DNA of 62,683 bases, counting the filler, from Hausera hauseri (taxonomy: Eukaryota): assembly GCA_046269625.1 (NCBI GenBank). It is 10 parts of 10 records of this genome, joined end to end, with 100 filler letters (N's around TTAATTAATTAA, not from the genome) between each part and the next. Parts side by side here need not be neighbours in the genome. Positions count along the whole stretch, not along the records: positions 36,373 to 41,311 come from JBJURY010385480.1; 9 more parts are not named here. One strand, 5' to 3'. Below the pieces are notes generated by a model that searched no databases, was not told where the DNA came from, and saw nothing but the letters and a program-made list of their open reading frames with translations. The position numbers and the translations under genes were made by a program. Positions 23,517 through 55,797 of this stretch are shown here, piece by piece (within the stretch, counting starts at the first letter, position 1; each line of letters opens with the position of its first letter).

Positions 23517-24409
23517 GAGATAAACCCCAACCAATAATCACGGCCGCTTAAATCTGGGCTGCGAAAAGGCCACTCGAATGGAAATCCTTTGCTCATGACT
23601 CGCTCTCCAAAGTTCTGTGAAAGGAGCTGCTTGGTGTCGTTGGCCGTGAAAGAAGTAGACCCATCTTGTTGAAAGATTATTGAAAACATCTTTCGTTTAC
23701 TTCTTAGAAAAGGAAGCAGAAAAGTCTGTAGCATTCTCTTGTATCTGTCTCCTGTTATGGTGACAGTCTGTTCATCGTCATTGTCAAAGAAATAAGGAGG
23801 AGTAATGAACTTCAAGCAAAATCCGCGAAAGACTTTTACTTTCGGTGAATGCTATGGTTATTCAATCACTTCGTTGGGATCATCAGTTAATCATATCCTC
23901 ATGTTGTAGATATTTACAGCATCATTGAGGTGAAAATATGCTTCGTTCGTGAACAGGATTTTTGAAAGCCAGTTTTCACCAGCTTCTTATTGTTTGAGAA
24001 ATTTCTGACAAAATTGGGTTCTTTTCACCCCTATTTCCTTTGCTTAACTGGTAGAGCAGACGAAATTTGTAGATTCATCTGTAAGTGCTGAGTGGCAATT
24101 TTGTTGACAGTAGATTGAGGGACATTAAGCTGACGACCAATTTGCGTTGTGCTTATTCGCCCATTAGCCTGTTCCAATAAATGTGAGTCCTCATCCACGT
24201 AATCACCGGATATTGATGGTCTTCCTGATCGTGATACATTAAAAGAAAATACATTGATTCAAATTTTGATCATCAGTAACAGTAGGTCTCTTGGATTTAA
24301 TTCCTCTCAATGTAGAAAACTTTCGGATTGTTTCACATGGGTAACTATTATTTTGATAATACAACTGCACTAACAGTAATCGATCCGCCATTTCCAATCT
24401 TGAAGACAT
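23517..24409 (-). mobile_element. Tc1/mariner DDD transposase (DUF4817-type N-terminus), degenerate
   Basis: FQQDG.T.FTA and WPFRSPDLS.RDYW; ILFTNEAYFHLN upstream; ATG at 24409 followed by RLLLVQLYYQNN. Confidence 0.88.
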
Positions 24410-24773: not shown

Positions 24774-27700
24774 ATGGACGCAACTAAAAACAGCATCCCC
24801 TCAACAACCAGTAGGAAACATCACGCCTCGACAAGTCTTGACGACTTAATCAGAAACAGTACAGAATAGAAGCAGTAACAGGAGCAGCAGAAACAGAATC
24901 AACAACAAGAACAGGAGCAGCAGGATGCCAATATTTCCAATATTACAGTCTGGTGCGATCTGAACAGATCGTACGTGGACATAAATGTGAACATATCGGC
25001 GAAAACAACACAACTGATACATGTTTCGCAAAATGTCTGCAACCGGTTGGAATCAGAAGTGGAGAAATTCCAACATCACTGCAAAGTGCAATATTATGCA
25101 CTTTCAGAATTGGAGAACGTACAAGGTGACAGGAAACAATGATACCTGTCACATCAAACTGTTCCATACGCCGAAGATTTTATTATCCATGTAGGCGAAA
25201 ATCTCGAGGAGAAAATCGCCAACTGCACTGGAAAGGGTAGTGGATGGCGAATTATAAACATTGTCACCCTCGGCTTTATTAAAACAAAGTCGAGTGACAT
25301 AACATATTTATCCAGGCGATCATTCATACCGCCCTCTGCAGCTCTGAAGCAGTCTCTGGAGGTAATGAATGTAAAAAATACCGACGACGAATACTGTTTT
25401 CTTTACAGTATTCCGGCGGTATTGAAATATGACCAAGTGTACAGACATAGTGCATATAGTCCAAAACGTTATCAGAAATACTTTTGCGAATTAAATTACT
25501 ATGGATGCTGGATGCCGATGAAACTGAAATCCGTTCCGGTTTTTGAACGACGTAATCTGACACTGTTAATAAACGTGCTTCGCTACAACACAATAATAGA
25601 AATACCGGCGGATGAAGAAATTTACAAAAATCCTCATGTGGATATAATGTATCGTAGTGGGAACCCAAATGGCCGCCCAATAAATTTGTTGCTGTTAGAG
25701 CAAATTAAAAAATTCCATTACGTTGCAGTGACAAATTTGGACAGACTGTTGAAGATGGAACATGACCAGTTCATCAAAAAGCATATACGGTGTAAATGGT
25801 GTCCAGTACGTCTGCACGGATTCAAATCCGAAACAACGTGGGAGAAACATGTGACTGTGCAGACAAAATTCCTCTGGAACCACAAAGTACGTCATGCCAG
25901 TCAAAAAGGAGCTGAGATTCAGTGATTTGTCAAAATCCGACAGTCCGGCATACGTGGTATATGACGATATTGAAGCCGTTTTACCACGTCACAGTGTATA
26001 TGATCAAAATCATGTTCCAGTCGCTGTCGGTATGTTGGTAGTCCCAATAAAAGCCACTGGTCAACCGCAGTATTACGTTTTCCACTGCTGGAACTGTATC
26101 CGTGATTTCCTGCATCAGTTGGAAACATTAGTAAAAACTGAAGTCGCACCCTGGTACAGTAATAATAATAAAGCAATAAACCCTTGATGTGGACAGACAA
26201 ATATGAACCGTTGATGTTTGCAACCACCGATGAATGTTACCTATGCCATAAAATATTACCGTTTGATGCACAGGAACGGCACATACCGGATCACGATCAT
26301 TTTACCGGTCGATACTTGGGAGCAGCGTGCAATTCATCCTATTTGGCAAGGCGTATGTGTGCATTCCTTCAGGTGATTTGTCAAAACTTCGGGTATTATG
26401 ATTTTCACCATATTTTGAAATGGACAATAAACGGATTTTCGCACTGCGACTATCCGTAATTCCGACTACGATGGAGAAATACTTGTCACTGTCTGCTCGT
26501 ATAAACCGGTTCCAGGTACGCTTCCTCTATTCATTGCAATTCCTCACTGAATCACTGGCAAAGCTAGTAAATGTCTTGCCAGATATGCCGCTAACGTTCA
26601 CTCAGTTCCCTGTACATATTGCACGTAGCAAAGGTATAATCCCGCATGACCGCTATATTGGACGAGCAGCTCCAGACGACATACGAATTACCACCGCAGT
26701 GGCCTGGTATCACAGAAGACGAAAGTCACAGAGCACAATCGTTTTGGGCAGAGCTCGGCTTCAGAAACCTGTTGGAGTACATGCTTCACTATCTGAAATC
26801 GCATGTGTACCTGTTAGCCGATGTGTTTCCGACATTTCGAGCCAAAGCGTTGGCAGAAGATAGACTGGAGCCACTCAATTTTTACTCAATACACGGAATG
26901 AGTTGGGCATTAGCCCTGATGTTACTGGATCGGGATATCGAACTATTGCAGGACCTGGAAATGTATCTAATATTTGATGTTAGTGTTCGTGGCGGCATGA
27001 CATTTGTCAACAAGCATTACGTAACCAGTGATGATACCACATCACTTTTGTATATCGACATTAATAACCTGTACGACTGGGCGCTTTCGCAACCCTTGTC
27101 GTACGGTTCATTCAAATAAATAGTTGACAAGCAGGACCTGGACGCAATACTGAAAAATCTGCCGATAGCAGACACAACAGAAAACAGCTAAATCGGATAC
27201 CTGATGGAAGTCGCACCGGTCGCGCCAAACGGCCAATGCCCGTCGGGCTTGAAGGCGAAGAAGCTGCTTGTGAAGCACGATCCTAAGCAAAATTACAGTT
27301 CATTGGCGTCAGTTGCAATTTTACATGTAGTTGGGTGTACGCGTCACACAGCTACATCGCGCAATCCGATTACCACAGGCTCCGATATTTAAGCCGAACA
27401 TAAGTCGGAATTCGGAAAAAACGAGCTGCAACTTGTACGAAGTTTGAAAGACTATTACAAACTGAAAAGCAATTTCCTCTACTGAAAAACAGTAGAGAAT
27501 CTGAAAAAGCGGCTCAATGTATGCCTGTGCAATACCGAAAAGCGGTTAGTCACGTACACCAGCAAGGCGCAGTTCAGGTGGTCAATACATATTGCTGATA
27601 GATTGGTTGCCGTGCTTTTAAACAGGGAAGAATTCGTGTTGGACCGCCAAGTTATATGGGATAAGTGGTATTGGATCTGAGCAAGTTGCGGATGTATGAG

Positions 27701-29147: not shown

Positions 29148-29597
29148 TCATTCGTAATAAATGTGTACATTTTCCATTATAGCAGGTTTACATTGTGGAC
29201 ATTGGTGGGTTACTTTGGTGGAACACATTTGACAAACAACTAGATGGCCGCACATTAAGAATACCGTATCTACTTTTCTTTGTTTACATAGTAAACACAT
29301 AAACTGGCAGTCTCGCACTTTGTCCATTATTTTCTCTTTCAAGCTCTTTAACGCACCGCGTACCTTTTCAACAGTATTAAAGTAATTTGTATCATACAAT
29401 CGGTGAATGTACATTTGTTTTAACACAATAATTAGATTTTCTATAGAGCTACAATCTGTTGCTGCCATCAATGCTAATGACGCTAAATCTTCTTTAAATC
29501 CAAAATTACCTGCTGCTCTCGCAACCAGTTCACTATCAAGTACTTGGCACCATCCATCAAAATTTTGCAACTGCTTCAGTTGATTAACTATTTCCAT
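29148..29597 (-). CDS. IAP-type C-terminal RING finger protein (no BIR visible)
   Basis: CLLC....DTVFLMCGHLVVCQMC......CPQC...I....HIY; TATAAA upstream. Confidence 0.85.
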   Translation of the reverse strand: MEIVNQLKQLQNFDGWCQVLDSELVARAAGNFGFKEDLASLALMAATDCSSIENLIIVLKQMYIHRLYDTNYFNTVEKVRGALKSLKEKIMDKVRDCQFMCLLCKQRKVDTVFLMCGHLVVCQMCSTKVTHQCPQCKPAIMENVHIYYE

Positions 29598-29719
29598 GAT
29601 GATTACTATTATTACTATAACCTACCCATATTTATAGTTTTTGAACTATTCAACTGACCAATACTGCTAAACATGTCGTGGACCTTATTTACAGAAAGAA
29701 AGAAAGGAACAGAGAAATA

Positions 29720-36372: not shown

Positions 36373-37233
36373 TCTAGGAAAACTACAACAAAGGACGGTG
36401 GGAATGTTCTGAGAATTGTACTGAAAATATGTAAGAGAAATGTACTGAGAAAGTGACTCAATTAAGATGTCCAGGTAACTAAGCTGTCAATAAACCAACA
36501 ACAACATACTAAAGGACCAGATGTGAAATAACAAAGTTGTCTTGCTTCGACTAGGGGGAAGAAGGGGCTAAAAAAAGATACGTCTGATTCTGTTGACTTT
36601 GATATTTTAAAAAGAGTCACAAAGTGCTGACAGAGTTAGAAAGGTGCTCCTTGAATTAGGAAAAGAGTATTTTTAAGGTGCTCTCAGACAGCAAGCTGTC
36701 ACATCTCCTTCCTCTGTTCCACTGACGACACGGTGAGGAACAGGATGGGTAGCTGTCACGAACTGGAGGAGGCTGCTGTCAGAGATGATGATTACTTTTT
36801 TCCTTCCTGTTGAAGGTTTTCAACCACAGAAACCTCAATGAAGGAAGTCAAGCAATAGTTGTTCTTAACCAGATTCTTTGAATTTTAACATTATTGACTA
36901 TCAATCGTTAGTATTTTAAGATTTAAAGTAAGAAACACTATGAAGAAAAGAAATAAAAAACAAAATCTTCTTGTGTGACTCTGATGGCTCAATTTCTTGC
37001 AGACAATTTCGGCTGACCTAGCCATTTTAAATACAGGATGCATAAGTACCTAAATTTGTTGAATAAATTACGATTGTCATTCAGCGTAGACCATGTTTTC
37101 TTTATGTATCGGCTGCTCATGTTATAACTGTCACATCCAGAGCAATGGGGGAATCTGAGAAAATCACGGTAACTACAGTTTAAGGTTTTTAAATGGTGTT
37201 TTTAAAGGTGTTTTCCTAATGATTTCTTAGAAC

Positions 37234-37394
37234 AGAAATTAGTCACCATGGCAAAGAATTCCTTACAGTATATTCAATTCCAGAAATTAGTCATCATGGC
37301 AGAAAGTTCCTAAGAGTATATGCAGTCCCAGAAATTAATTGCCATGACAAAAAATTTCATGACAGCATATTCAGTCCCAGAAATTAGTCACTAT
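37234..37394. repeat. Degenerate minisatellite, about 48 bp x 3.3
   Basis: Recurring cagaaattagtca.catggca unit. Confidence 0.75.
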
Positions 37395-37499
37395 TACAAT
37401 GCAACAAAAGATGCGGTTGATGTTTAGGATGAACGTATTGGCTCAAATCGCTGTAAGCTCGAGGTTAACTGTTAGTCGAATTGTTGAACATATATTCAT

Positions 37500-40335
37500 T
37501 GTCATCAACACTAAATTAAATTCTTCGTTGAATGAAAATGAAAAAGAAAAAAAGATTAAAGAAATTTATAGATTACGTCAAAAAGATTTTGTTCCAGAAC
37601 CTCGATACTTATCAGAAATTGAAAAACAAGAAAAGATTAATAAGCAAATCGATGCAGTAATTGATGAAGTTCTTAATCACAGAATCGAACCATCTCCAAT
37701 AGTAATTAGCAGTGGTGAAGTCACCCCTATTGGAGTGGACGAAACTCAGTTAATAAAAGAAGATGAAGAAATTGATATACAGAAATTCATTAAAGAAGGA
37801 CAAGATTTACTTCTTACTAAAGATGTGACCACAAAGAACGACTAATTAGACAAATTATGTTTACTCATGTTAAAGAAAAAGAAAATGAAGCAAGAACAAA
37901 AAGAGCAGCTGAAAGAGATACGCACTGATATGGAATTATGGCTAAGTAAAACTTATGAATCAGAAATTAAAATTGAACTTAAGAAAGTCGATGATATCCT
38001 AGATCAAAAACTAAGTGATAAAGACAAATCCTTTTGGACTGAACAGAAACAATTATTAGAAGGCGCGAGATTACCACCTATTAACTCTGGAAAGAAAGAA
38101 ACTATCAACGAAGTACGGATTAAATTAAGTCAAACAATAGTATCGTATCTATTTAAAGTCTTAGAGACAAAATCACTATGTAAATATTTGCTTCGGAATT
38201 CAATTATTGATAAATCAGTAACTCTTAAAAAGAGAATTAATCATTTAATTGAACAATTGAGAAGTTTTGGTATAAAAAGCCCTGAAGATAACGAGAAAAC
38301 GTTAACCAAAATCCTTGATGAAACCAATGAACAGTATCAATGTGTGTCTAATGAGAATGATTTAGATAAGAGTGAAAACGAAATTGAAAATGAATTAATT
38401 CTGATTTCTATAAAATAAATTACCGACAACTATCCTCCTATGGTACCTCCAGTTACCATCAAAGAACTTACTGAAGAAGTAGAAACTACTGACGATTTTC
38501 TTAAAAGACTAAAAGGAATCAAATTTTCTCCGGATTGCAAGAAGTTTATAAATGAAATAAGAAGAAAAGAAGGAAGCGAACCTCTTACCGATAACGAACT
38601 TCCGTTGATAATTGATGAAAAATCAGACTTAAAAGAAAGAATGGAAAAATTAAAAGGACCAGTGTCAAAACGATCAGATATCATACAACAGTTACAAAAA
38701 GCAATTCTCCCAGAAGAAATTGAGAGTAATACTGCCGATCTAATTGAAACAATACAACCCAAAATCAAAAGAAAACCTATTGTAGAGAAGATGCGCTTAT
38801 GCAAACCTAGTGACGTTAGAATTAGTAGAGAAAAATTGCAAGTGCCAGTTGATGTAGTACAAGATACTCTCTGTGATACGACTGATTATAATTTCGGAGA
38901 TGACATCAACATTACCGATTTCAGCAAGTGTGATTTGGACAACATCTATCCTGAAAGATTCCCAGAGGATGAAATGGACAATGAGATAGAGACTCGACCA
39001 ACTTTACTTAAAAGAATGAATGCTTTGGAGGAGTAACCCGAAGAATTAGATGACTTATTAATGACATAACTCAACAAGGACGGAAATATTCAAGAAATTT
39101 TAGAAGCAGTAGAGAAGTTATCTAGTAAGGCGGCAGATAAATAGAGATACAACTCTACTCCACGAACGCTATTGAAACTATTAGGAAAATATTTCCTAAG
39201 CAATCAATATTAAAAAAATATATATTAAAAATATTAAAAAGTTATTGTTCGAGCCATGTTAACGGAATCGTCTTTCCTGATATAGAAATGAATCTAGATA
39301 GTCAATTTGCGGACCTTGAACAGATGATCAAATGCCAAACCAATAGAGTAATGAAACACTTAAGAATTGAATATTATAACAGAATCTTAGACTCAGAAGA
39401 ATTTTTAATAAATGTTGGAATGATACCCACAAATATCAACGCCGTTAAAGTTATGCCAACTAATGAATTAACTCAAGAGGAACCAAAACGAAAAATAATA
39501 AATGGAGAAGATATACATGAAGATGAATCTATTATGGGAATCCAATGTAAACAAACTTATTTGCAACATTTAAAGGAAGCAACAGCGGAAAATTTGAAGA
39601 AACCACTTATTGATATAGAAGATAAAGAAATCGTACAGCCAATAGTAAGGAAAACATTGTTTGACCTTAATAAGCGCGCCAGACCTAACAAATTAATGAC
39701 TGTTGCTAAAAATTTCGCTACCAAAATTATGGATTATGAAACTCCAAAATTATATAAATAATATAAAGAGGTCAAGAAACTGGGTAGAGAAATCTATTAC
39801 ATAGATATTGGAAAGGATTCGATTACCCCTCGATCTCCAAAATGGAAAAAACGGGTTTAGGAACAGCTGAAATTTATGAAGAATCTTAAGAAAAATTCAC
39901 AGTTGAAAAACTTCACAATTGATGATATCGTACAACTAATCCTAGAGAAACCATCCAGTATAAATCTTGAAAAGGTGATACTGTTGTTAATATCCGAGAC
40001 ACTCAATGAAAATGGATTGAAAAATACAACAGGCAAAATCATTCATGCTAGCAAATCAATAATTCCGCAATATGGAAGATGGAGAGACCTATTTCTACGC
40101 AATGAAAACGAAAGTTTACTCGAAACAGAACCGAAAAATATAGAAAAGGCTATTCAAGAAATTACTTTAAATGCATCCCATGAAAAGATTGTTCCCATCA
40201 TAATTGAGAAGATGACAAATCAATTACAAGAGGAAATTCAGAAAAGGGATAGTGTAAAGTCTAATGGAATATTCGTACAACTCATGTTACTCTTATTATT
40301 GTTATTTTCGAGTTTTAAAAGAACTGGAACAATAT
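37500..40335 (+). pseudogene. N-terminal E/K-rich helical part of endogenous viral/retroelement polyprotein, copy A
   Basis: Consecutive ORFs broken by single stops or frameshifts, running in frame into an internal signal peptide (IFVQLMLLLLLLFSS). Confidence 0.7.
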
Positions 40336-41311
40336 TGGCCTATGATTGCAACCAGATATATGAAGGCAGTTACTATTCATTGATGGATCTTCAGTCATGC
40401 CCAGATGCTCTTCCGAGAAAGCTGGAGACGCAAATGCAAAATCTATATATTTATTACGACAAAACTGTTACATATAAAAGGACTGGAATGTTCCTTACGC
40501 GTTTCTCGCACTATTTCTCACTGTGGCTACTTACACCATGACTCGTACATCAAACCAACTACTATACCTAAATATGTGTCAGTAAATCCCACATATTGTA
40601 GAGATGCGGGAGAAACCCAGCAACTGAAATGTGGAGAAATCCTGTTGACCGCCATAAAAGGACAAGTAACTCAACAAGAAAAATGGATCGCTGGATATAA
40701 AGATGAAAAAGGAAACTGTAGAGGAGGAAATTTTGACACAGGAAAAGGTGTTGAAGCAGGTAGCATAGTGCATGACCAGTATGAGGTTGAAATTAAGGAT
40801 AATACCTATTTTTTTCGAAACCAGCACAAATACAATGGCAGACGCATCCTTTTGTAAATTACAAACAGGACATTGTCATACTAGAACCGCCATTATAGTT
40901 TGGACACCACCAACGAGTTATGATTGTACATTAGTACAAATCAGAAAAGGAAAATTCAATGTCACCACAGGAAAACGTTATGTCCGCCATTATGAGACTA
41001 ATTTCGAGCATACCAATATTCAAGTTATTCCGGAAGTAAAAACACCCAAGATTGTAATATCAAAGGATATCAAAGGAGGAGTCAAATTCATACAACAAGA
41101 TGCTATTACGAAATGTGGACAGCAAGTATTCAGTATAAATTACGATAATTACTTTATATCCGAAAGAAAAATTAAAGGAGCAGATAATTCTCCCTCCAAT
41201 AGAGCTCAGTTAGTGAATATTGCAGATTATATCGCAAACCAAAATGACTTTCTATTCTACCTAACTCATAAAACTATCGAAGAAATATATTCCGAAACAA
41301 TCCAAAATTTT
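40336..41311 (+). pseudogene. Chuvirus-G/gB-like class III fusion glycoprotein ectodomain, copy A (truncated by the spacer)
   Basis: AYDC....YSLMDLQSC, ECSLRVSRTISHCGYLHH.S, C...., IAG....GNCRGG, C....G.C......IVW.....C, CG.....NY. Confidence 0.85.
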
Positions 41312-41411: not shown

Positions 41412-41800
41412 GTGGGAGTTGGACTCCACCAGGGCTGCCCATTGTCACCGATTTCATGCATGCACAGAGAGAACTTGTAAACTCCACCCAGAAACATCCC
41501 CAGCCCAGATTTGATCCAGTGACCCTATTGCGAAAGGCAACAGCTCTACCAACTGAGCATCAAAGGCTCAATCAGTTACACATCTGTTAACATTTAAAAT
41601 GCCATCTAGTGGGCTGGATATAATTGTAACATGGGCCATATCTGACGTATGGGTTATGAATTTGATGACACTTGGTATGAGACCCAGGAGGCTGGGGTGA
41701 TGAAGGGTAGGTTTGGCTGTGCAAGAGGGGGGAACCAGAAAGCCTGGAGAAAACCCCTACATGCAAAAGGAAAACATTCAAACTCCACAGAGAAAAGTCA
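41412..41800. repeat. Teleost-type RTE LINE sliver and SINE fragments
   Basis: VGVGLHQGCPLSP RT motif at 41412; two gagaac.t..aaactccac.cagaaa-like SINE motifs (about 41465-41560, 41730-41795). Confidence 0.55.
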
Positions 41801-41920
41801 AGCAGATATTTGCAATGTAATCCTTTCTTTTTTTGTTAACCACCATGTGGTTTCACCATGTGGACACACATGTGCTTTCATTGGCCAGAAAAGGACTAGG
41901 TCAGCTCTTGGGTTTGCACT

Positions 41921-44900
41921 TTATGTATATTGGCCAAATTTCTTCCCAGATGATTTGTTATTGGCATCAGAAAGGTGAGAAGTTGTGTAGGAAGCTTCAA
42001 CACTTGTGTTAGGTAAAGTCCTGGTGTTATGATCTACACTTGCTTTCTTGGTGAGAAATTTTTGTGGGCGTTTTCGATGCACTTTTGTGTCAGATGTTTG
42101 TTGGTTAGATTTTTTGGAATTTCTACCCGCAGTCGGAATCGCAATGGGATCAGGATTTGTGAACCTTTTGTTATTGAAGTCTGGAGAAAGACAGGCTCGG
42201 CTCTTGAGTTGGCATCTTTTTAATATTTGGTGTGCGTTGGTCACATAAACACTGTTTTTGAAATCAGCAAGATGGGCCATCGTGATGAAGTCATGGTTTA
42301 GCGCATCACTCGAGAGAATTCTGTCCGCTGAATTTATCATTAATATGTTCCTGATAAAGTCTATAAAGGATGTCAGATCTTCTATTTCAATAGGATCCTC
42401 GGTTTCAGGTGCCATTTTCTGCAGGTCATCCAGAGACTGTAAACGATCTGAAATCATGTTTCCTGTTTCTTCTGTATTTTTTTTGCGTCTCTTAAGTCTC
42501 CAAACAAGACCCGATTTTTTCATGTCCAGTTTAAAAAAGCGATGGACGTGCTTGCCAAAATTCAGTGAATTATGGTCTGGCATACCATGCAGCTTTACCA
42601 TCATTTTCACATTTTCAAATAACGATACTGGATACATATGTTCAGCAAGAAACAGGTAAAGTAATGTAGCTCCAGTACTCCACACATCAACACTTTCGTC
42701 CAGCGGAAAGCCCAGGATAACTTCAGGTGCTTTATAACCGAAAGCTTGGATATCAGAAATCAGTCGTAATTCTGAAGTCTGACAAGCAAGGCCAAAATCG
42801 ATCAGTTTAACTCTAAATAGCGTTTTTTCATAATCAGCAATCATTATGTTGTCGGGTTTAATGTCGGTGTGGGTGATGCCAATTTGTTTCAGTGCGCTAA
42901 GAGCTACTAGCGTTTGTTCAGCGATCGGTCTGATTTCCGACACGCTCAGAGGTTTGCAATTGTTTTTTCCAATCCAGTCAAATAAGCTCAGATCTAACAT
43001 TTCAAACACAAAGCAAGTGCTGTTCTTATATGGAAAGCAGTGAAAAAACTTTATCAAGTTGTTTTTGTCAGCGTCAAGCTTTCTGAGACGTTTTAGTATG
43101 CATGCTTCTTGCTTAGCTGACAAGTCATCTTCTTCACCTATTGCTTTTATTGCTACAAATTCCTTTGTGCCTTTTTTTCTGCACCTAGCAACTTGTCCGA
43201 AGCTTCCTTGACCAAGTATTTTATAAACGTGGTAAGAAGTTGATCTATGATGGATGGTGGTATTTTCATTGAAAAATAATACGGACAAATTCATAGCGTT
43301 TCTGGAGTCTTTCAGGCTGAAGTCTGGGTTGTATGCTGTGTCATCTTTGTCATAATGTGAGTTCTCAAGGTGGCACCTTGACATCATTTCTTTTGCCATT
43401 GTTCCTGAAGAACTTTCACCTGCTTTAGTAAGGTGTTTCATTGTAATGAAGTTGTGCCGAAGAGCATCACCTGGGAGAATCCTGTTTAATGGATCAACTG
43501 TTAGCATCATCTTAATAAGGTCCACAAAGGCTTTGACATCTTCTAATGCAGTGGGATCTGTTATGTCAGGTGCCATTTGGTGTAAATCATCAAATGACTT
43601 TAAGTTATCATAACAGTTGCCTTTCTCATCAGTGCAACATTCTGTTGCCTGAAAATATTCCTTAGGTGTTTTGAACTTCCAAACGCTTGTAGGCCCTCTC
43701 TGGAGGAGAGTAAAAAAGTCCATTGATCGCCATCCTTTCTCCAGAAAATATTTCTCTGGTTGGCCATGCAGTTTTACAATGAACCTCAAATAGTTGTATT
43801 CACAGTGGGAAGTAGGATAAAAAGATTGGCCAAGGAAAAGAAACAGCAATGTGCATCCCAGACCCCACATATCAATACCTTCATCTGGTTGAATACCCAA
43901 GTTAACTTCTGGTGCTCTGTAACCAAAAGCCTGAAGATTCTGACCCTTTGATAATGTAGAGGTTTGACATGCAGCCCCAAAATCAATCAGCTTAACCCTA
44001 AATGGATTTGACCTCTGATTGACAAGCACTATATTAGTTGGATTTAAGTCTGCATGGGTGATGCCAATGCTTTTGAGTGCTTTAAGAGCTACGAGCATTT
44101 GTTGACAGATCGGTCTGATTTCAGCAACTTCTAGAGGTTTCCAGTGCCGTCTTTCTATAAAATCATACAAGCTTATGTCTAACAACTCAAATTTGAGGCA
44201 AAAGCATGACTTAAACTGAAAACAGTTAAAGAACCTAATGAAGTTGTTGTTGTCCGGGTCGAGCCTTCTGAGACATTTGAATATGTCAGCTTCTTTGTGA
44301 GCTGTAACGAAGTCCGACTTATTCACTATTTTTATAGCTACAGTCTCAGAGGATCCGTCTTTTCGACATTTAGCAACTTTTCCATAACGTCCGTGTCCAA
44401 GCACTTCCTCGATGTAGTAATGTGTCCATCTCAAGTTATCTTGTATAACAAATCCTTTTTCAAACGGACTAATCAAATATACGACAGAAGAGTCGCTATC
44501 CGTGTTGTCCGTTTCATCTGTGTTGTCCGTTTCATCTGTGGAGTCATTGCCATCTGTTTCTTCTGTGGTTTCTGCTTCATCCATGGAGTCTGTTTCATCC
44601 ATGGAGTCATTGCCATCTGTTTCTTCTGTGACTTCGGTTTCATCCATGGAGTCTGTTTCATCCATGGAGTCCGTGCCATTTGTTTCTTCTGTGACTTCTG
44701 TTTCATCCATGGAGTCTGTTTCATCCATGGAGACCCTGCCATCTCTTTCATCTGAGCTCAGGAGTCCAGATCCCTGCATTAACTTATTTGCACAGTCAAC
44801 ATAGAGGCCATTTTCTGAATTATCAAGGTGGTCCATTGTGATAAACTGATGATTAAGCGCATCAGCTGGGGAGATTCTGTCCACTGGATTTAGTTCTAAC

Positions 44901-45904
44901 ATGTTTTTCAGGAAATCTATGAACGCTTTTAAATCATCCAATTCAGTAGGATCCAAGACTTCATCCATGTTAATTAAGTCATCTAGTGAATTCAAATGAC
45001 CATAAGGGATGTTTTTGATTTTAACTATATTTCCTGTCGCTCTTTTGTATTCTTTGAATGTTCTAAGCCTCCACTTTTTGTTAGGATCTTTCGTGTCCGT
45101 GGTAAAAAAGCGCCTGGCACGCCATCCTTCGTCAAGCAAAGAATCATTTGGTTTGCCGTGCAGTTTAACTATAGATCTCATATAATTATACTCACAGTGT
45201 GTACCATACAACTCTTCACCAAGGAGTAGATATGCCAGCGTGCATCCAAGGCTCCAGATGTCAATGCTTGGACCCACCGATAAGTTTAGAAACATTTCAG
45301 GTGCACTATACCCGCAAGTTAGATGGAATGCAGCCTCTGTTAGTTTTCCTTGTTTAACAGCCGCTGAAAAGCCTGCAAGTTTAACTTTAAACGGCTGAGA
45401 GACATGGTCAACAAACAATATGTGTTCAGGCTTTATATCTGCATGCATAATTCCAGTGTCTTTCAGTGCACTCAAAGCCACCAACATTTGGTGAGCTATT
45501 GCTCTGATTTCACTTACCTCTAAATATGCCATGTGTCTTGAAGACACAAATTCTTGTAGGTTTAAGTCAAGATGTTCAAATGCTAAACAGATACGGTCAT
45601 TGAACTCGAAATATTCATAAAACTTGACAAAATTATTCCTGTCAAGACCGACCGTACCGAGAAGACGTAAAGCTTTGATCTCTCGCTCTTCTGCGTCGTA
45701 ATACTGCTTCTTTGTGCATTTTAAAACAAACATTTCGTTTGTTTTATCGTCTCTGCAAGCGGCGATCTCTCCAAAGTTCCCATACCGTAGGATCTCTACA
45801 ATGTTGTAAACGCTTGACTCACTTCTGATTTCAGAACCAACTTCTGGTTTAAAAGCTGGATCCGCGACGCAGTTTGGCGAATATTTTTTCAAATATCCAG
45901 CCAT
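41921..45904 (-). CDS. Intronless protein with three tandem HIPK-like (CMGC) kinase domains; probably teleost
   Basis: Intact ORF of about 1327 aa from ATG 45904; three units of G.G.FG.V..C / VAIK / FE.LD / H.D.KP.N / VKLIDFG / APE / D.WSLG, with an acidic repeat between domains 1 and 2. Confidence 0.93.
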   Translation of the reverse strand: MAGYLKKYSPNCVADPAFKPEVGSEIRSESSVYNIVEILRYGNFGEIAACRDDKTNEMFVLKCTKKQYYDAEEREIKALRLLGTVGLDRNNFVKFYEYFEFNDRICLAFEHLDLNLQEFVSSRHMAYLEVSEIRAIAHQMLVALSALKDTGIMHADIKPEHILFVDHVSQPFKVKLAGFSAAVKQGKLTEAAFHLTCGYSAPEMFLNLSVGPSIDIWSLGCTLAYLLLGEELYGTHCEYNYMRSIVKLHGKPNDSLLDEGWRARRFFTTDTKDPNKKWRLRTFKEYKRATGNIVKIKNIPYGHLNSLDDLINMDEVLDPTELDDLKAFIDFLKNMLELNPVDRISPADALNHQFITMDHLDNSENGLYVDCANKLMQGSGLLSSDERDGRVSMDETDSMDETEVTEETNGTDSMDETDSMDETEVTEETDGNDSMDETDSMDEAETTEETDGNDSTDETDNTDETDNTDSDSSVVYLISPFEKGFVIQDNLRWTHYYIEEVLGHGRYGKVAKCRKDGSSETVAIKIVNKSDFVTAHKEADIFKCLRRLDPDNNNFIRFFNCFQFKSCFCLKFELLDISLYDFIERRHWKPLEVAEIRPICQQMLVALKALKSIGITHADLNPTNIVLVNQRSNPFRVKLIDFGAACQTSTLSKGQNLQAFGYRAPEVNLGIQPDEGIDMWGLGCTLLFLFLGQSFYPTSHCEYNYLRFIVKLHGQPEKYFLEKGWRSMDFFTLLQRGPTSVWKFKTPKEYFQATECCTDEKGNCYDNLKSFDDLHQMAPDITDPTALEDVKAFVDLIKMMLTVDPLNRILPGDALRHNFITMKHLTKAGESSSGTMAKEMMSRCHLENSHYDKDDTAYNPDFSLKDSRNAMNLSVLFFNENTTIHHRSTSYHVYKILGQGSFGQVARCRKKGTKEFVAIKAIGEEDDLSAKQEACILKRLRKLDADKNNLIKFFHCFPYKNSTCFVFEMLDLSLFDWIGKNNCKPLSVSEIRPIAEQTLVALSALKQIGITHTDIKPDNIMIADYEKTLFRVKLIDFGLACQTSELRLISDIQAFGYKAPEVILGFPLDESVDVWSTGATLLYLFLAEHMYPVSLFENVKMMVKLHGMPDHNSLNFGKHVHRFFKLDMKKSGLVWRLKRRKKNTEETGNMISDRLQSLDDLQKMAPETEDPIEIEDLTSFIDFIRNILMINSADRILSSDALNHDFITMAHLADFKNSVYVTNAHQILKRCQLKSRACLSPDFNNKRFTNPDPIAIPTAGRNSKKSNQQTSDTKVHRKRPQKFLTKKASVDHNTRTLPNTSVEASYTTSHLSDANNKSSGKKFGQYT
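44495..44735 (-). repeat. Coding acidic repeat (DSMDET / EETDGN)
   Basis: 18-bp and larger nested repeats inside the kinase ORF. Confidence 0.9.
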
Positions 45905-46017
45905 TTTCAAACGCTACGTTTTCAGTAGTCCGGAAACAGTCCTTTCGGTTCTAAGTTTCACCGAAGAATGATGTTCCAACGTTTCGCTTAAGTATTAATG
46001 GCATGTAAACAATGATG

Positions 46018-46230
46018 TAACAAAGGATCAAAGACTGTGATGCATAACAAAGGATCAAAGAATGTGATGCAGAACAAAGGATCAAAGAATGTGATAGTGA
46101 TGTCATCAAGCTAAATGTTGCTATAGTGATGATGTCATGAAGCCAAAAAAAGTTCTAATTTCCTGTATTCTATTTAGCTTGTTTACATCATCACTTTCAC
46201 ATTTGTATTCCATTTAGCTTGATGACATCA
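46018..46230. promoter_or_regulatory. Upstream tandem (aacaaaggatcaaaga.tgtgat x3) and 20-bp inverted repeat
   Basis: tgatgtcatcaagctaaatg (46098-46117) vs catttagcttgatgacatca (46211-46230); the tandem units contain ATCAAAG and AACAAAG HMG-box-like sites. Confidence 0.5.
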
Positions 46231-46273
46231 TCACTAAAATCGATTTGTTAAAGAAGCTAGATTCTTAGCCCTG

Positions 46274-46373: not shown

Positions 46374-46469
46374 AATCAGTAAATGAACCTTATTTTCCTC
46401 CTCTTATAAATTTCCTCACTTTATATTGGCTGCCTGAATTCCTCCTCACATCCTAAAAGGCCCAGATGA

Positions 46470-48840
46470 TAAATGAAAAGATGCATATAATATGCTAGAT
46501 AAGGCTATAATGGCAAAACCAATAATCGCCAATCAATTGTCGGAATGGCCCGAATTAATAACGCGACTAAGTAAATTAGTGGAAAACCGTAGGAAAGAAT
46601 TTCCAGAAAGCAAGCCTTCTATAAAGAAACAGTTAAAAGAAAGTGCACATAATTTAAACACAATAAAGGCAGAAATAGATATACGAACGCAATTCGAAAC
46701 TTTACGACGACTAAATTTTATGAAGAAAAAGCAGGAAACGACGATACTGGAAAAATCTATAAAATGGTCGAAGAGACGAATTTTACAAAAAAGCGGAATA
46801 TGACTTGCAATTTCTATCCAAGATTAAGAAATGTCCGATTGGAAGGAGTTTAACATTTAACATATAAACCTATCGATGAGATCCACCCAAGATATTGAAA
46901 CCCTAGACATTTGTCCGAAACATCAAGTCACTTTGACGGACGCAATAAAATTTTTGCATAAATTAAAAGACTGGATGGCCGGATCAGATCAGAACTTCCA
47001 CATCGAGTTGACAAAGATAAGAAATGACGAACAGCTTAGTTTTCAGAAATCTAAGTTCGTAAAGAAATTGTTTGATGCAATGGATCCCGACTCAAAAGTC
47101 ATAAATGAGATGTATGTACTTAATGGTAGAAATGGCAGAAATTAATGATGAGAAGATGAGGCAATTGATGCCCAAGTTACAGCAAGTAAAACAAACGTGC
47201 ATCAGAACAAAACAAAGAGCAACGAGACTAGATGAACTAGAAAAAGAACTCGAAAGCTATCGGAATAAATACACCTTTACCGAATCAGAAATTAAAAACC
47301 AGCGTGAATTTGTACAGAGATGGCAAAGAGGTGTAATCATTGAATTAGCAGATTATCATCAAAAAGGACTTATCAATTCTAACGAATTAAGCGAATCACT
47401 AAAGATGATTCAGTATGCTGTGGAAACGGAATAGGTTTCCGAACTACGCAGATAAAAGAAGTACAACCAAGATTGAAAGAGATTAGGGAAAATGTGCAGA
47501 AAACGAATACAGCTTTAGTAGGCTATGGACTTCCAGATATTGGAAATGAACCAGAATGGGACGCATACTTCGAGGCGATAACGGTCAAAAATCCTATTAC
47601 TCCTGTACAGCTAAAAGAAATAGAAATGGGCCCGCAGAACAAGAGATACAATATGGAGATGCTCCTGGATTCAGCGCTAACTGAAAAAGATTTAATCAAA
47701 CTAATTAACGTAAATATCACTGAAAGTAAGTTAAGGCAACTCATTCCGACCTTAACTAAATTATCTAGTGCGAATACGATTTATAGCACGGTGCCGAAAC
47801 TTTTGATAATGGAATAAGCTAAAATCTTGAGGGCTAAACCTGAGGTAGCGATGAAAGTAATGATATCGTCCGAGTGGATGGACGAAAAAGAATGTGAATT
47901 AACTACATATTCCTATGTGAGGGATGTAAGAGAATGGTTATTAAATAATGGCGGAACAAACGAGTTAAATTACAGGTTTTACTTCAGAGGTAGAATACTA
48001 GACGATTTAGAACAGTTTATAGACGTCGGAATTATTCCCGACGAAACAAATCAAATAGTGGTAATAATAGCCAATGAACAAAGTAGAGAAGAAGCCACGG
48101 GTAGAGCTAAGACAAAACAATGCGTAGGACAAATTATGGGAGTCCGAAACGCTACAATGTATTTTGAGTATCTACAAACGGACGAAGATAAGGATCAATA
48201 CGATAAGAATTTAGTACCACTAAATGAAATGACAGCCAATGTTCCAAGACAGAAACGCCCAGTCGGTAGGCCTAAGAAGACACGAGAAGAAGTCGATTAT
48301 AATGGAAAATTGATTAGAGAATTGAGACAAATGTCATTTCCGACTTTCGGCTCACATAATGAAGAATTAAACGAGTTAGTGAAGAATTTAATACGAATTG
48401 TAAATTATTCAAGCCTTCTAGATGACACGTTAGATGGTAAAGAAAAAGTCATATTCGATGCAGCTAGAATGATGAGAAGTTCACATTTTAAACTATCGAA
48501 TAATAACTTAACCGATGAATCGGTAATCGAAAACATTATGGTAAAAAACACCAATGAAGAATTGAGAAAAGTATTACTATACTTAGCTATTAAAATAAAC
48601 CTTAATCGGGAGAATATAATTAATAAGGCTATAGGCTTAGCACGAAAAGCGGCAAGAAAACTGCCGTGCGAAGTAAATTGGTCAAGACTATTTGACAAGG
48701 AAGAAGACAGACAAACCAATAATAAACTCGACGATATGTTATGCATTTTGACAACGGCGGACGTTGGATACCGGAAAAACGAATCAAATTGGCTAATCAG
48801 CTTACTCACTTTGATGATGCTAATAAAGCACATAAGCGCT
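46470..48840 (+). pseudogene. N-terminal part of polyprotein copy B: coiled coil, ubiquitin-like domain, AT-hook, helical domain, internal signal peptide
   Basis: Mostly one frame with isolated stops; YRFYFRGRILDD..FIDVGI (Ubl), KRPVGRPKK (AT-hook), WLISLLTLMMLIKHISA (signal). Confidence 0.75.
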
Positions 48841-50974
48841 GTTACCGTCTACGACTGCGATAAGTTTAAACTAGGGCAGAGATATTCCCTAATGGATTTA
48901 GAAGTGTGTGAAGATGCCAAATCGCACAAGTTGGAAGCAAGAAAGAGAAATTAAATCCTGTATCAACAACAAGAACTGATATCGTTGGATGGGATGGAAT
49001 GTATGCTAAGATGATCTCGTAGCATTTTTCGCTGTGGTTTACTACACGGACATTCCGCAATAATCAAACCAACCACTGCTCTCATTCCAATGAACCTAGA
49101 ACGCCAGCACTGCAAACAGGCTAAGGAAACTGAAAGAGTACAATGGGACAATATACAATTAGAAGTGCAACCAGGAAAAATAATTAGGGCATACAAGATA
49201 GTGGCAGGAAGGTTAGACATGCATAACGGACATTGTTACGGAGCGGAATACGACACTGTAAAAGGATTGGAAGCAAATGTGGTAGTCGTGGATTTTTAAG
49301 AATCGGAGATGCGACCACTGAATGTAATGTTCCATAGTGTCACTAAGTTATACACTGAAAACCAAAAATGTCACTTACATGATGTAACCCGTACTTTTCG
49401 AAGTTCTGTTATAGTGTGGGAATCTCCCTCTGGAAGAAGTTGTAATTTTATTAAAATTAAGGAACTAAAGTTTAATAAAACCACCGGAAAGCGATATGTG
49501 GATAAATCTGATACCAGCTCAAGGACACGCGAAGACGTGTCGGAACATCCTACGCCCACTATATTAATCTCAGATCATCATGGACTGAAATTTATTAAAA
49601 AAGAGATTATTTCCCTTTGTGATGTAGTAATGTTTGCTACTAACTATGAGGCGTTCTTCATAGCCAAAACTGAGATAAATGCGAAAACCTATAAGTTGGA
49701 AACATAAGATATCCGGATTAAGGACTACTTGAAGAACAAAGACGATTACTTTTATTATAAAGGACAAGTCGGAATAGCTGAATTATATCACAAAATGATA
49801 ACGAACGACTGTAAATTAGATACCGAGATCATGAAGACAAAATTGGCCCTTATATACGCCAACCCAGAGTTGGCTTATCCAATAATTCCTATGGGAGAAG
49901 GAATTTTCGGTCGAGTCACAGGCGAAGTATTACTAATTTACGAATGTGAAAAAAGAGATGTACCCATTAATGTGGAAGAAAAACGTTGCATTTAGGAACT
50001 TCCCGTTATTTATCAGAATACCCCAAGGTTAGCTACACCGTTGACGAGAGTGTTATTGGATAACGCAACCAACCAACCATTCTTAAGGATTGCAAGGCAA
50101 GTTTAGGAGAACCCACGTTTAGACGTAGTAAAACAGACTGGGTTAGTCTGCCAAATGGAGGTATTACTGCCGCCAAAATAAACTAACAGGAACGAATCTT
50201 GCGAAAGGAAGTACGGACGATAAATTCCAAGATACTTCGTCGAAAGGCATACACAGGCCCAAGGAAATCGAAGCTTTTAGACAATTCCTCGCTTTTGCGC
50301 GACAACGCACACATGAACTAAATCGAGCCATGACCTCGGTAGTAGATGATACACGATATCAGGCCAAATGGGAATCTTTACTCGGTGTAAACCATTATCA
50401 GCGAGTAACCACAGAAATACTCTACAAAATTTGGGAAAGATTTTTAATTTTTGTCCAAGCCGCATCTAGATTCTTGGCGATATATTTTCTGATACAAATG
50501 ATTAAAGCAGTCATCCAAGCAGTAATTAATTGGTATGAAATATTTACATTGACTGGATTTTCATGTAAGCTACTGACTGCAATCATAACGCCCTTTGGAA
50601 AATTCTCAAAAGCATACGAAGAAAATAGATGGAAATCCGACGTAGAACGCCATGTCGGTTACTATAATCGTAAACGAAAAGGAAGGCCCATATTCTTGCG
50701 AAAGCGGGGAGTTACAAAACCTAATACGCAAAGAAATAACTCAGATAATGACGAGCCTAAGGGAGGAGAAGTACTTTCAGGAAGAAACAGACATAAGACG
50801 AACTCTGTCATTAAAGGGTCATTGCCGATGCTACCTCCTACCGCTCCAGTCTATGAAGACTGCGACAAACGATCAATGAGTTCATATCAAACGGAAATCT
50901 ATAAAAGGACGATTAATGTAGAAGACTCGTATGAAGACACGAAACGCTACGTGATCCTACGGAAAATGTGTTAG
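48841..50974 (+). pseudogene. Chuvirus-G/gB-like class III fusion glycoprotein with TM anchor and PTAP tail, copy B
   Basis: VYDC....YSLMDLEVC, EC.LR.SRSIFRCG..HGHS, VAG....GHCYG, NDC, GRVTGEVLLIYEC....RC.*ELPV......TPLTRVL, W..F..F...S.FLAIY...IK..I....G.S.KLL.A TM region, PPTAPVY. Confidence 0.9.
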
Positions 50975-51853
50975 CGACAGCCGGTGGATGATTCCAGGAT
51001 GTTGTATTCTCCGAGAGAACCTCGGAATATAGAAACTGGATCAACGGTTTGGGACAACCCAAGGTTAAGAACCTTCCAGAATACCGAACTACACACTAAC
51101 AATCGAGAACCATTAATCAGCACTCATGAAGCAGAAAACTTAAACGTCGAAAACAATGAATTATACCCAAACGGAGAGTTAAGACAACTGGAGGAGAACA
51201 TAGTATCCTCCCCAGAAATCCGAATCAATGGATATAAAATATCTGTGACTAAACGGCCAAAAGTAGCATTAAACCGTTTTGGAACAGTAATAGAAGGAAG
51301 ACCCTTCGCTAAAATCACTATCGAACACTGGGAAGTTTATGCATTAATCGATACAGTTTCTGAGATGTCTGACATTAATAATGATTCAATACATCAAACG
51401 CTGAGAGGATAATTATATCCACCATCTACAAAGGACCCAGAAAGCACATGAGCTTTTGGTCAAATGTCGAAACCGATGTTTAAACGGAAGCCAGAAGTCC
51501 AAATAGTTGGACAAATTTTCCGTCATGAATTTGCAGTCATGAAACAATTAACCGATGACGTCGTCTTAGGATGTGATCTACTGAAAAGGTTACCAAATAT
51601 AGCAATCGATTTGCAAACAGGAAAATTAATAGAAATCAGACAAGATAAAGGTATAAAAAACGCCAAAGAAAGAAAATTTGGAGAAGTATGGATACCAGTC
51701 GATGAAAACAATCCACCGAAAACAGAGATAATAATCTATGATCAAGTTCAACAAGATGACGATCAACCGGTATATTTTGAACCGAAAGAGACGTTAAATC
51801 CGAATATAATACTTAGTAACATACTCACAAGAGTACCCTCTGGTCGTGAATAA
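50975..51853 (+). pseudogene. Retropepsin (retroelement aspartyl protease) and post-protease region
   Basis: GRPFAKITI....VYALIDTVSEMS (DTG>DTV, one base change), RHEFAV..L..DVVLGCDLL...IDL; same frame as the glycoprotein tail. Confidence 0.85.
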
Positions 51854-52000
51854 ATCAGAAAAGCAAATAATGCACCGACTCCCGTTGAGCTTCATGCATA
51901 CAAAAATACTTATAGAGTGTCGTATATGCAGTAATATTAGCGTTGTCCTTAATTTTCTCATGTGTTCCGAAAGGTAATTCTGAGCTTTTCAAAGGAGACG

Positions 52001-52100: not shown

Positions 52101-52675
52101 GACTGCGGTTAGTTTAACTTTCCCGCGCACTTTGAGTGCAAATAAAACAAGTGTTTTTCAAAATATACAACTAGGCGCTACCCGTTGAGGGGACGGGACT
52201 GTAGCGTTGATAGCACTCTTAGTGATGCAGTTATATTTAGTAAAGCAGTGATATTTATTTGATTCTACTGAAGGGGGTGTCTACAAAGTAACCAGGTCCA
52301 TAACATTACTGGTTTGTATAATACACATTTAATGATGATTTTAAAGGTGTACAAAATGTATCAGTTCAATGTCGTTCGCACGAGAAATAGAAACAGACCA
52401 CCATATAATTCTATAAAATTTCAGGGTTTCGCTCTCCCTACAATGATGTCAAACTTGTACACTGAAAACTGTTCTCTTATCGGCACATATTTCCTGTACC
52501 CTATTACCTTTTCCTGTGGATATTGTAATCGTTACTTTATTCTAAATTTAAGTTGAAAAGATTTGTTCCAAAATGGAATGACATGTTGCTATACATTCAA
52601 AATCATGCTTAATTTGAGAACTTGAATAAAGAACACAGAACTTTTTTTGTTCAGCACCAACTGTTAACATTTTAC

Positions 52676-53985
52676 CTGATATGGCATGACATTTTCAGAC
52701 AGCTGTAGTGTTTCACTGGGTGAAACAGTGGTCACTGTCACAGACGTTATTTCAGTAGATGGTGGAATCTGTGGTTACAGATGAAGGTTTAAGAGTTCTT
52801 CTTGTAAATATGAATAAAAGTATTTTGACAATGCAATGAAACTTAAAGGATACAAACCTGCATTATTTCCACACGAGGCAAGATGTACAGTCTGCTTTTT
52901 CCAACACATTTTTTAAGTTCTCTCACTGAGCCAGCCTGTAACTTTTGAAGCTTGCGCCTCTTTCCTGCCCTTGCCAACTCAAACCCAGTCAGATTTAAAC
53001 TTATCTGAGGATAACTCTGACAGATGAAATTATTTAGGTCAGACAGCGTCCACGTCAGGTCTATCTTCAAACTTGCTCCACCCACTGTTGACTCATGGTA
53101 AGCTGGTGGGCCTAAATAAAGAAACATAAAAAGATATATCAACACATTAGTGGCAAACACCAAAAAGGTTATAACTACAAACTCATAGCTCAGTTAAAAA
53201 CATGGAATATTCAGCCTATATCTGTCCATACAAGTGCTATTTGATACACACATACCTCCACCTAACCAGCAAGTCTTTACTTTTTAAGTTGAAAAGGCTG
53301 CCTATTATTTAAAGCATCTTGTCTTCATAGTGTAGGCTTTGATATTAAAATGTCTTGGACTAATACTTCCTTCCTTCCTAAAAGACATTTGCATTAATGT
53401 GTGGACAGATAAATAATTATCCTCATATTGCAAAAGTAAATTCACTGATGACAAAATGGTACAATGAGGCTTAACAACAAAAATTAATGTACAAGTAATT
53501 ACTATATTTCACATATCTTACCTACCTAATCCATTTTTGACAAGTTGTTGAAGGTCCGTTGTAGAGGGAAGAACATCGAAATTTGGACCAGGAAGAAGAA
53601 ACAGTCTCGCCTGCCACAAGGGATTTGCCCGTCTTCCAATGGATCCTATGACAGAAACTTCATATATAAATTTATTTTAAAAAAGCAACTATGAAGCAGC
53701 TATAACTACTATCTATAACTAATTTTATTTTAACTACTTAAAGTATCCTTATTATAAATAACAAATCCGTTAGATGATAACTTTTCCCTGGATAAATGTC
53801 CATAATGTTGCTAGCTTTCACGCAACTTTGCAACCTAACACAATTTTTGCTAGCTTACCTTGTCTGGCGGGGCGACGTCGGAAAAGTCGCCTTGTAGCAG
53901 ACAGTATTTCCTCTGGATTAGTAAGTTCCTGTCTTGCAAGAGAAATCGCCCCGAAAAGTCTGTCAAAAGCAGAAGAACTTTCCAT
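52676..53985 (-). CDS. Spliced teleost-like gene, first four exons; resembles N-termini of transposon-associated G2E3/HECT-like proteins
   Basis: Phase-consistent GT-AG exons 53985-53859, 53645-53526, 53111-52858, 52768-52676; motif W....L......YP......GFELAR...L..L.....LK..VG.SRLYI.P. HECT domain not seen. Confidence 0.6.
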
Positions 53986-54109
53986 GTCTGTTACATTATG
54001 AACTCCAAATGCGCCGATAGTGTTTGAAAGCGGGAAATACAACTTCCTGCCTCCGTGACTCGTGTGTGCTCACTCTGACGTTCCACTCTACGTGTCCAAA
54101 CGCATCAAA

Positions 54110-55760
54110 TTTAATATTCGTATAAACGGATTTATAGATAGGAAGAATGGCAATTATGGATATCCACAACTAAATTATTCCCAGTACAATTGCAGTTGTA
54201 GATATATGTAAAGAAATTTTTACTAGTAGGAATGTATTCCTGATGTTACAAATCATGTTGTTGATATCTGAAATGTTTTCTTCATTTTTGATATCTTAAA
54301 AGATAGTATAACCAGTAACAATTGGATTATAGAGATCTAAATTTAGTTTTTAGACATCCAGAATGTTAATTTTAGATAGGAGAAATGTTATTTCGGACAT
54401 CCGAAAGTAAACGCCCGATGACGTCATTTGTACTAGTAAGAACTCCATTCCTCCTATCTAAAATGAACATTTTAGATAGGAGAAATGTTATTTTGGATAT
54501 TCGAAAGTAAACGCCCGATGACGTCATTTGTACTAGTAAAAACTCCATTCCTCCTATCTAAAATGGCCATTTTAGATAGGAGAAATGTTATTTTAGATAT
54601 CTGGAAGTAAAAGCTCAATGACATTATTTGTACTAGTAAGAATTCAATTCTTCCTATCTAAAATGAACATTTCAGACAGGAAGAATTCCATTGAAGACAT
54701 CTTAAATACATATCCAGTTAAGCAAATATATGTTAAAACGGCCACTTAAAAAAAGTAAAGATTTGTAGATATCTGGAACTTAGTTTTTACTAGTACACAT
54801 TTGATTACAGATCACTGAAATGTTAATTTATACTGGCATAAATGTAATTGGTGATATCTGTATTACAATTCTGACTAGGAATATATTAATTGTGACTAGG
54901 TAGAATGCATTAGTGCTATCTATAATAGAAATGTGGCTAGTCAGCAAGCCTATTTTATGTTAAAACGGAGCCCTATTATTCTGCTGAGAGATAGTCAAAA
55001 TGTGTTTGTAAGTATCTATAATTGTAATTTGTATAGGCATTATTAACATTTCAGATATCTGAAATTCCACATTAACTAGTCAAATGATCAGTAGTTGATA
55101 TCTTTAATTAGATTTATACTGGTACAAATGTATTTTGGATGTCAAGAATTGATATCTGGATATCTAGAATGATTTATTCATTTCTGATATCTGAAATGGT
55201 CATTATGACTAGTATTAACTGGATTATGGATATCTGAAATTAGAGTTCCTCCTCGTCAGAATTCATTTATAGACATCCAGAATGTTTATTTTAGATAGGA
55301 AGAATGTTATTTCAGATATCTGGAAGTAAAAGCCCAATACACATGAATGGGAAAAGTGACGTCATTTGTACTAGTAAGAATTACATTCTTCCTATCTAAA
55401 ATGAACATTTTAGATAGGAAGAATGTTGTTTTAGATGTCTGGAATTTTCATTTTGACTAGGAAGAATTGTGTTTGAGATATCTGAAATAGATATTCATTC
55501 AACCTATTAAATGTTAAAATGGCGACTTAAAATTTGTAAAGATTTATAGATATCTTAAACTAAATTCTTAATAGTTCAATTTTATTTATTGACATCCTGA
55601 ATTTAAGATTTTCCCAGCAAACATGTAATTGTAGATATCTATAATTACAGTTCTGACTAGTAAGAATGTAATTTTGACCAGGAAGAATCTTTTTTTAGTG
55701 ATCTACAAATGGAATAACAGAGAGGAGCTCACTTGAATAAATGTTAAAACGGCCTACCAT
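54110..55760. repeat. Complex palindromic repeat, likely non-autonomous DNA transposon interior, with 100-bp tandem units
   Basis: tttagatagg recurs at 54371, 54471, 54571; internal palindrome tcctatctaaaatg..cattttagatagga; dense gatatct and actagt motifs. Confidence 0.75.
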
Positions 55761-55797
55761 AGGTAAGGTTTCCACTTCTCACATTACATTGTAACCT

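Follow-up and report, generated by a model that had tools for sequence, protein, structure and literature searches.

Does the fusogen-type glycoprotein that lies inside a long coding run at this locus reflect an inherited gene order, or a single insertion? The window, i.e., the whole analysed stretch of 62,683 nucleotides from the Hausera hauseri assembly GCA_046269625.1, is a concatenation of some ten short contigs with N-linkers in between. Two of these contigs carry such a glycoprotein: copy A (contig 36373-41311), which has N-linkers on both sides and thus stands on an independent contig, as initially described, and copy B (contig 46374-52000). We consider it likely that copy A is what remains of an envelope-carrying Ty3/gypsy LTR retroelement with GAG-ENV-POL order (an "ancient errantivirus"), now dead and truncated at both its 5' and 3' ends, that the planarian (Schmidtea) group contains its nearest relatives, and that copy B represents a sister family.

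Parts and relatedness of the two copies

The following features were distinguished in copy A, its flank and copy B:

36373..37527, no strand: flank of copy A, host DNA, low-copy by summed contig depth (7 of 7 bins); CpG observed/expected ratio (o/e) 0.42-0.46
37233..37391, no strand: tandem repeat of a 48-bp unit (3.3 copies) within the flank, close to the edge of the element
37528..39140, plus strand: distal E/K-rich coding region in the gag position, four stops; the family depth begins at about 37528
39231..39467, plus strand: probable ubiquitin-like (beta-grasp) domain of copy A (Pfam; A+B profile against PDB)
39363..40115, plus strand: proximal upstream region, comprising the end of the ubiquitin-like domain, a linker and a helical domain, two stops; homologous to copy B 47974-48711
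40251..40337, plus strand: internal signal/anchor helix directly before AYDC (hydropathy peak 2.36 at 40266)
40338..41311, plus strand: ectodomain of a gB/chuvirus-type (class III) glycoprotein, N-terminal half only, with two frame changes (PF24664)
46414..48789, plus strand: upstream region of copy B, with a ubiquitin-like domain at 47842-48084
48790..50600, plus strand: signal, glycoprotein ectodomain and transmembrane (TM) region of copy B, hydrophobic peaks at about 50441-50530 (PF24664, hydropathy)
50600..51600, plus strand: cytoplasmic tail of copy B with PTAP (50837), then a putative retroviral-type aspartic protease (ALIDT, 51341), in the frame of the TM region

Stop counts per frame indicate that the plus strand of copy A codes from 37489 to the contig end: there are four stops in 550 codons (37489-39138) and two in 450 codons (39141-40490), compared to 42-76 in the other two frames. 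The stops lie at 37843, 38416, 39034, 39067, 39759 and 39858, and the frame changes near 39140, before the glycoprotein, and near 40490 and 40810, within it. About 910 codons precede the internal signal, and E and K together make up 25% and 22% of the residues of the long coding run, in agreement with the roughly 900 E/K-rich codons of the initial annotation. The statement that these codons run in frame into the glycoprotein is correct for 39861-40490, where the reading passes unbroken through the signal into AYDC...YSLMDL..C, but not elsewhere, given the six stops and one frame change before the glycoprotein. The distal region is cut at its 5' end, its first start methionine inside the element is at 37867, and it yielded no Pfam or PDB match and no recognisable domain. 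The 48-bp repeat in the flank could be read as a 16-aa repeat; it ends about 140 bp short of the element.

Hydropathy of the copy A coding run peaks at 40251-40320 only, and the signal/anchor segment matches positions 6-56 of the Pfam profile PF24664 (E 0.015). The glycoprotein pieces of copy A match the same profile with E 2.5e-10 and 5.7e-8; the last piece alone (40814-41308) has no Pfam match, yet it is 33% identical to copy B. When stops are read as X, copy B matches with E 1e-38 (profile positions 6-426) and 4e-16 (471-594), covering positions 6-594 of 653. All seven motifs that had been named as shared were located in copy A, each with a counterpart in copy B: AYDC at 40338 (VYDC in copy B), YSLMDL..C at 40374, IKPTT at 40549, AG..G.C.G at 40690, IVW..P..C at 40895, F..TTGKRYV at 40955 and TP.I.IS at 41042. 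One hydrophobic segment precedes the glycoprotein in each copy and a TM region follows it in copy B, and the gB/chuvirus-type ENV ectodomain therefore lies between a signal/TM and a TM segment, as judged by PF24664 and the hydrophobic segments; in copy A, the contig end (41311) cuts the glycoprotein mid-ectodomain, before its TM.

Downstream of the glycoprotein, the TM region, PTAP and ALIDT of copy B share a single frame, with the protease-like domain placed after ENV; the Pfam models gag-asp_proteas and RVP both match this domain at E 0.016, below the cut-off. PTAP is a late domain that recruits ESCRT, as established for retroviruses, and was seen in copy B only. No reverse transcriptase (RT), integrase, LTR or primer-binding site (PBS) was found on either contig, both of which end before the expected RT, and neither an LTR or PBS nor a long repeat was recognised in the copy A flank (36373..37527).

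The two copies had been described as protein-level homologues with diverged DNA, and the comparisons agree: the glycoprotein pieces align with E 1e-18 and 5e-21, whereas blastn between the contigs gives no match at E 1e-3. Within the glycoprotein, 33-39% of the amino acids are identical; over 237 codons that precede it, the figure is 23%. The codon comparison that had been proposed yields pS of 0.67-0.89 versus pN of 0.42-0.54; synonymous sites between A and B are near or at saturation. The upstream homology (A about 39363-40115) holds when the glycoprotein is left out, with a score of 122 against 38-41 for shuffled sequences (z 13-15), and none of 300 shuffles reaches this score in either of two shuffle schemes. 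The remaining three of four upstream segment pairs, including both with the distal 550 codons of copy A, are at chance level (z 0.1-1.3). The best distal match, of 27 aa (A 38650, B 46453; E 0.03), was not accepted as homology. The initial annotation would have been contradicted by unrelated upstream regions; we found that the proximal stretch of about 240 codons is related between A and B and that the distal stretch of about 550 codons of A does not align. At the sequence level, detectable homology to copy B covers only the proximal quarter of the copy A upstream region. The same upstream domain enters the signal and glycoprotein without a frame change in both copies (A 39861-40490, B 47818-48951). 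Because the proximal match is real without the glycoprotein, the junction of upstream region, signal and glycoprotein is older than the split of families A and B.

Copy number, decay and host

Relatives of copy A were counted among public contigs of two runs, using an 82% likeness threshold. The first run contributed 3210 contigs, of which 234 are at least 99% alike, 588 are at 95-99%, 1197 at 90-95% and 1191 under 90%, a spread over four identity bands that characterizes a multicopy dispersed family. The second run, labelled as another organism and study, contributed 153 contigs, mostly less than 90% alike, which cover 23 of 23 element bins. The claim that the element forms a family is thereby upheld in two organisms. 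In the first run, which may be the same source as the window, summed contig depth, a quantity not equal to copy number, is 352-2657 in 23 of 23 element bins (from 37528), compared to 1.3-4.4 in the seven flank bins. This contrast indicates that the E/K-rich region is part of the repeat and that copy A is cut at about 37528, without an LTR. The glycoprotein was also correctly said not to be a one-off insertion: the junction with the upstream region and signal is unbroken in frame in both divergent copies, and many copies exist in the public contigs.

The depth profile also bears on a different origin, namely that copy A is an endogenized chuvirus glycoprotein (EVE), or a capture of the "Anakin" type by a BEL/Pao element, next to unrelated upstream DNA. 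PF24664 is indeed the fusion protein family of Monjiviricetes, and chuvirus glycoprotein EVEs are often found within Pao elements as well as on their own (PMC7642597, excerpts). However, the homologous upstream parts of A and B keep register with the glycoprotein, depth is high over upstream part and glycoprotein alike, and a tail and then a protease-like domain of retroviral type come after the glycoprotein in copy B; among 35 ORFs scanned, none matches chuvirus N or L. We regard this origin as highly improbable and already largely refuted. The resemblance to the chuvirus glycoprotein is that of the PF24664 domain, which here forms part of a retroelement polyprotein and comes after about 900 residues, with no N or L gene. 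Anakin of mosquitoes likewise has a glycoprotein of the same superfamily on an LTR retroelement, but its backbone is BEL/Pao (PMC7642597, excerpts), whereas the glycoprotein of copy B precedes a protease that is weakly matched by retroviral/gypsy-type profiles.

Returning to copy A as a truncated gypsy-type element, we asked how it differs from other copies. Using the best-supported 40 of 790 listed base differences, 39 of which could be scored, 12 of 39 are synonymous, compared to an expected fraction of 0.28 under neutrality. A synonymous share as expected for neutral change is indicative of a dead copy. From the same set of differences, 2 of 14 transitions are in CpG context, against a background of 17%, and there is no signature of CpG decay in copy A.

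The latter result is relevant to the host. Besides the contig of copy A, the window has seven contigs that are not CpG-depleted and two that are (41412-46273 and 52101-57458), and the CpG o/e of the two classes is about 1 versus 0.03-0.9, which suggests that the assembly contains DNA of two organisms. The presence of the depleted contigs, one with a triple HIPK-like kinase that we take to be teleost-like, together with a CpG o/e of 0.42 in the copy A flank (12 observed, 28.6 expected), could mean that the element resides in the genome of a vertebrate (fish). We find this quite unlikely: apart from the missing decay signature, CpG o/e is 0.85 in copy A and 1.14 in the heavily decayed copy B, which likewise shows no CpG decay, a non-depleted contig falls to 0.45 in one of its segments as well, the closest described ENVs are planarian in the published rows excerpted, and a mixed assembly (fish and invertebrate) explains the window more simply. 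An invertebrate host, likely a flatworm, in a mixed assembly is probably the simpler reading.

Other contigs contain further coding remnants. The CpG-depleted, fish-like contig carries an uninterrupted ORF of 1330 aa (41921-45913, minus strand) that codes for the three HIPK-like kinases and also contains an acidic repeat with a 63-bp unit. In an exact look-up of four neighbouring proteins, intended to place the host group, 0 of 4 were found. Intronless RING-finger ORFs of the C3HC4 type (17440-18714, plus strand; 29148-29621, minus strand) are on non-depleted contigs. Decayed fragments of a protein-primed DNA polymerase B, Polinton-like, were seen at 25143-27119 (plus strand; PF03175, E 2e-4), and degraded LTR-retroelement pol pieces (protease, RT, integrase), unlike A or B, at 1081-3393, 9236-10424, 59590-61918 and 20865-22398. 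Between contigs 1 and 10, 2.3 kb align at 67% identity. A fragment at 23465-23851 (minus strand) resembles a Tc1/mariner transposase by eye, with no Pfam match, and a sequence scan for tRNA genes found none.

The upstream protein and a probable ubiquitin-like module

We infer from its position that the upstream protein is Gag, since neither a capsid nor a zinc-knuckle match was found in the upstream regions of A or B (Pfam and PDB sequence searches), and structure models of these regions were of low confidence (pLDDT 39 and 51). Fold searches with the two models returned nothing above background, and PDB sequence searches with the upstream regions and the ectodomain returned nothing significant. 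Gypsy Gags have often diverged beyond detection by Pfam.

Segments resembling ubiquitin were first spotted by eye, at 39231-39467 in A and 47842-48084 in B, which are 27% identical. A profile of the two sequences, searched against PDB, has as its best matches the ubiquitin-like (UBL) domain of IQUB (E 0.003-0.005), and UBL-domain proteins account for 7 of the 11 rows up to E 10; with the untrimmed profile of 321 positions, the IQUB UBL domain is again on top (E 0.004). The Pfam ubiquitin model gives E 0.07 for A, below the cut-off, and no match for B. The structure model of the segment has the order strand-strand-helix-strand-strand-helix-strand, which is right for a beta-grasp, at a low-confidence pLDDT of 51; its fold search gave no Foldseek match at E 0.001, and the best VIA match (Z 4.4) was an unrelated protein. 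Taken together, a ubiquitin-like domain is probably present about 300 codons before the signal in both copies. Copy B has in addition an AT-hook-like motif near 48250 (plus strand), between the UBL-like and helical domains (Pfam AT_hook E 0.19, below the cut-off), which is only partly preserved in copy A.

These results could also be accommodated if the element is a retroelement whose upstream part of about 900 aa is not Gag but a long cytoplasmic Env leader, or else an accessory module acquired by capture (UBL and helical domain), with the capsid gene located further upstream or missing. The lack of a capsid match fits this proposal, as do the restriction of recognisable upstream features to UBL-like and AT-hook-like ones and the lack of alignment between the distal regions of A and B. 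We still rate it as unlikely: the high depth of the family ends at about 37528, the length of the upstream part appears to suit the whole gag slot of planarian elements, and a blank Pfam result is common for gypsy Gags.

One tentative interpretation is that the gag-position protein of this lineage carries a conserved UBL domain, without a C-terminal GG, and is fused in frame through an internal signal anchor to a class III fusogen; the protein might then be membrane-tethered, with the UBL domain recruiting ubiquitin-pathway or budding machinery. No description of a ubiquitin-like module in Ty3/gypsy elements was found in the literature searched, and the possible UBL module before the envelope is the one feature that looks undescribed.

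Related elements and proposed working

Elements of the GAG-ENV-POL type with gB-type ENV have been reported from Nematoda, Bryozoa and Platyhelminthes, where they are not monophyletic; intact homologues were not found in vertebrates, and the ENV ectodomains lie between two TM segments (Chary and Hayashi, eLife 2026, PMC13524379, excerpts here and below). The Platyhelminthes elements, Smed_errantivirus_1-6, are of cysteine type C1a and have 1-215 copies; Schmidtea elements 1-4 measure 14.5-14.9 kb when the 3-kb extensions at either side are counted, which, after subtraction of an assumed Pol length, would leave room for an upstream part of about 800-1000 codons. ENV-POL candidates are listed for Dugesia and Girardia too, among 30 of 55 flatworm rows. 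Smed_errantivirus_1-6 resemble A and B in the apparent order upstream part, ENV, protease, in the gB-type ENV, in being multicopy and in compatible length; they differ in that copies A and B are dead and truncated. The six Schmidtea C1a ectodomain rows are close to A and B by eye, with a common cysteine spacing and a TP..S..G..F..KCGQ.V..NY block, a likeness that rests on inspection and short motifs rather than on a computed alignment or tree. Of 229 published sequence rows, two contain KCGQ, both from Schmidtea; ATNY is less specific (2 of 5 occurrences in Schmidtea). The 15 nematode C1 rows are, again by eye, much less like A and B than the planarian rows. The words "ubiquitin", "polyprotein" and "fused" do not occur in the excerpted main text of PMC13524379, and the in-frame fusion and the UBL domain are therefore not stated there. 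Non-canonical ERVs of nematodes resemble A and B in that ENV is ahead of POL; they are metaviruses whose glycoprotein is of RNA-virus type (Sacco et al. 2022, doi 10.1099/jgv.0.001739, excerpts), and the excerpted parts of PMC11089739 and of the Atlas-virus preprint contain nothing that alters the reading.

The initial annotation had called the internal placement of the fusogen an ancestral, conserved design. Conservation is evident between A and B and across the family; "ancestral" is to be limited to this lineage, because the design is published for three phyla and is not monophyletic (PMC13524379, excerpts).

Searches for longer relatives were blank. There were no longer proteins related to the upstream ORF of copy B among 3309 candidates, none related to the glycoprotein piece of copy A among 146, and no relatives of the copy B ectodomain (stops as X) among 4640; phmmer with the upstream ORF of copy B against 1.84 billion representatives gave 0 matches. 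These results carry little weight, since annotation seldom covers the proteins of eukaryotic repeats, and a full polyprotein is longer than the 2000-aa limit. Scans of viral and metagenome contigs did not find longer relatives reaching RT; a single locus at E 1e-3 was rejected as chance, its ORFs being T4-like phage by eye. The Atlas feature search returned nothing at 0.9 or above.

Based on the order of parts in the two copies, we propose the following working of the intact element. A single long ORF would be translated into a polyprotein whose first 900 aa or so, in the gag position, would be cytoplasmic and may contain the ubiquitin-like module and the helical domain. The internal signal/anchor would thread the gB-type fusogen into the ER lumen, and the second TM helix would bring the chain back to the cytoplasm, where the PTAP tail and protease would be followed, presumably, by RT and integrase. 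Signal peptidase and the protease of the element would then cut the polyprotein, so that structural protein, fusogen and enzymes would all end up on the same membrane, from which budding and cell-to-cell spread of an infectious particle could follow. Some nematode ERVs reportedly have one continuous gag-env-pro-pol ORF; the phrase "gag-env-pro-pol" itself was not found in the literature searched.

The two divergent families add to a thinly sampled group of retroelements with a fusogen inside the gag-pol chain. It should be noted that the gain is modest, because the layout is already published. From such a layout it follows that production of structural protein, envelope and enzymes is coupled on one membrane, an arrangement closer to the polyproteins of alphaviruses and flaviviruses than to retroviruses. 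A confirmed ubiquitin-like domain, or a host beyond the three known phyla, would raise the significance of these families.
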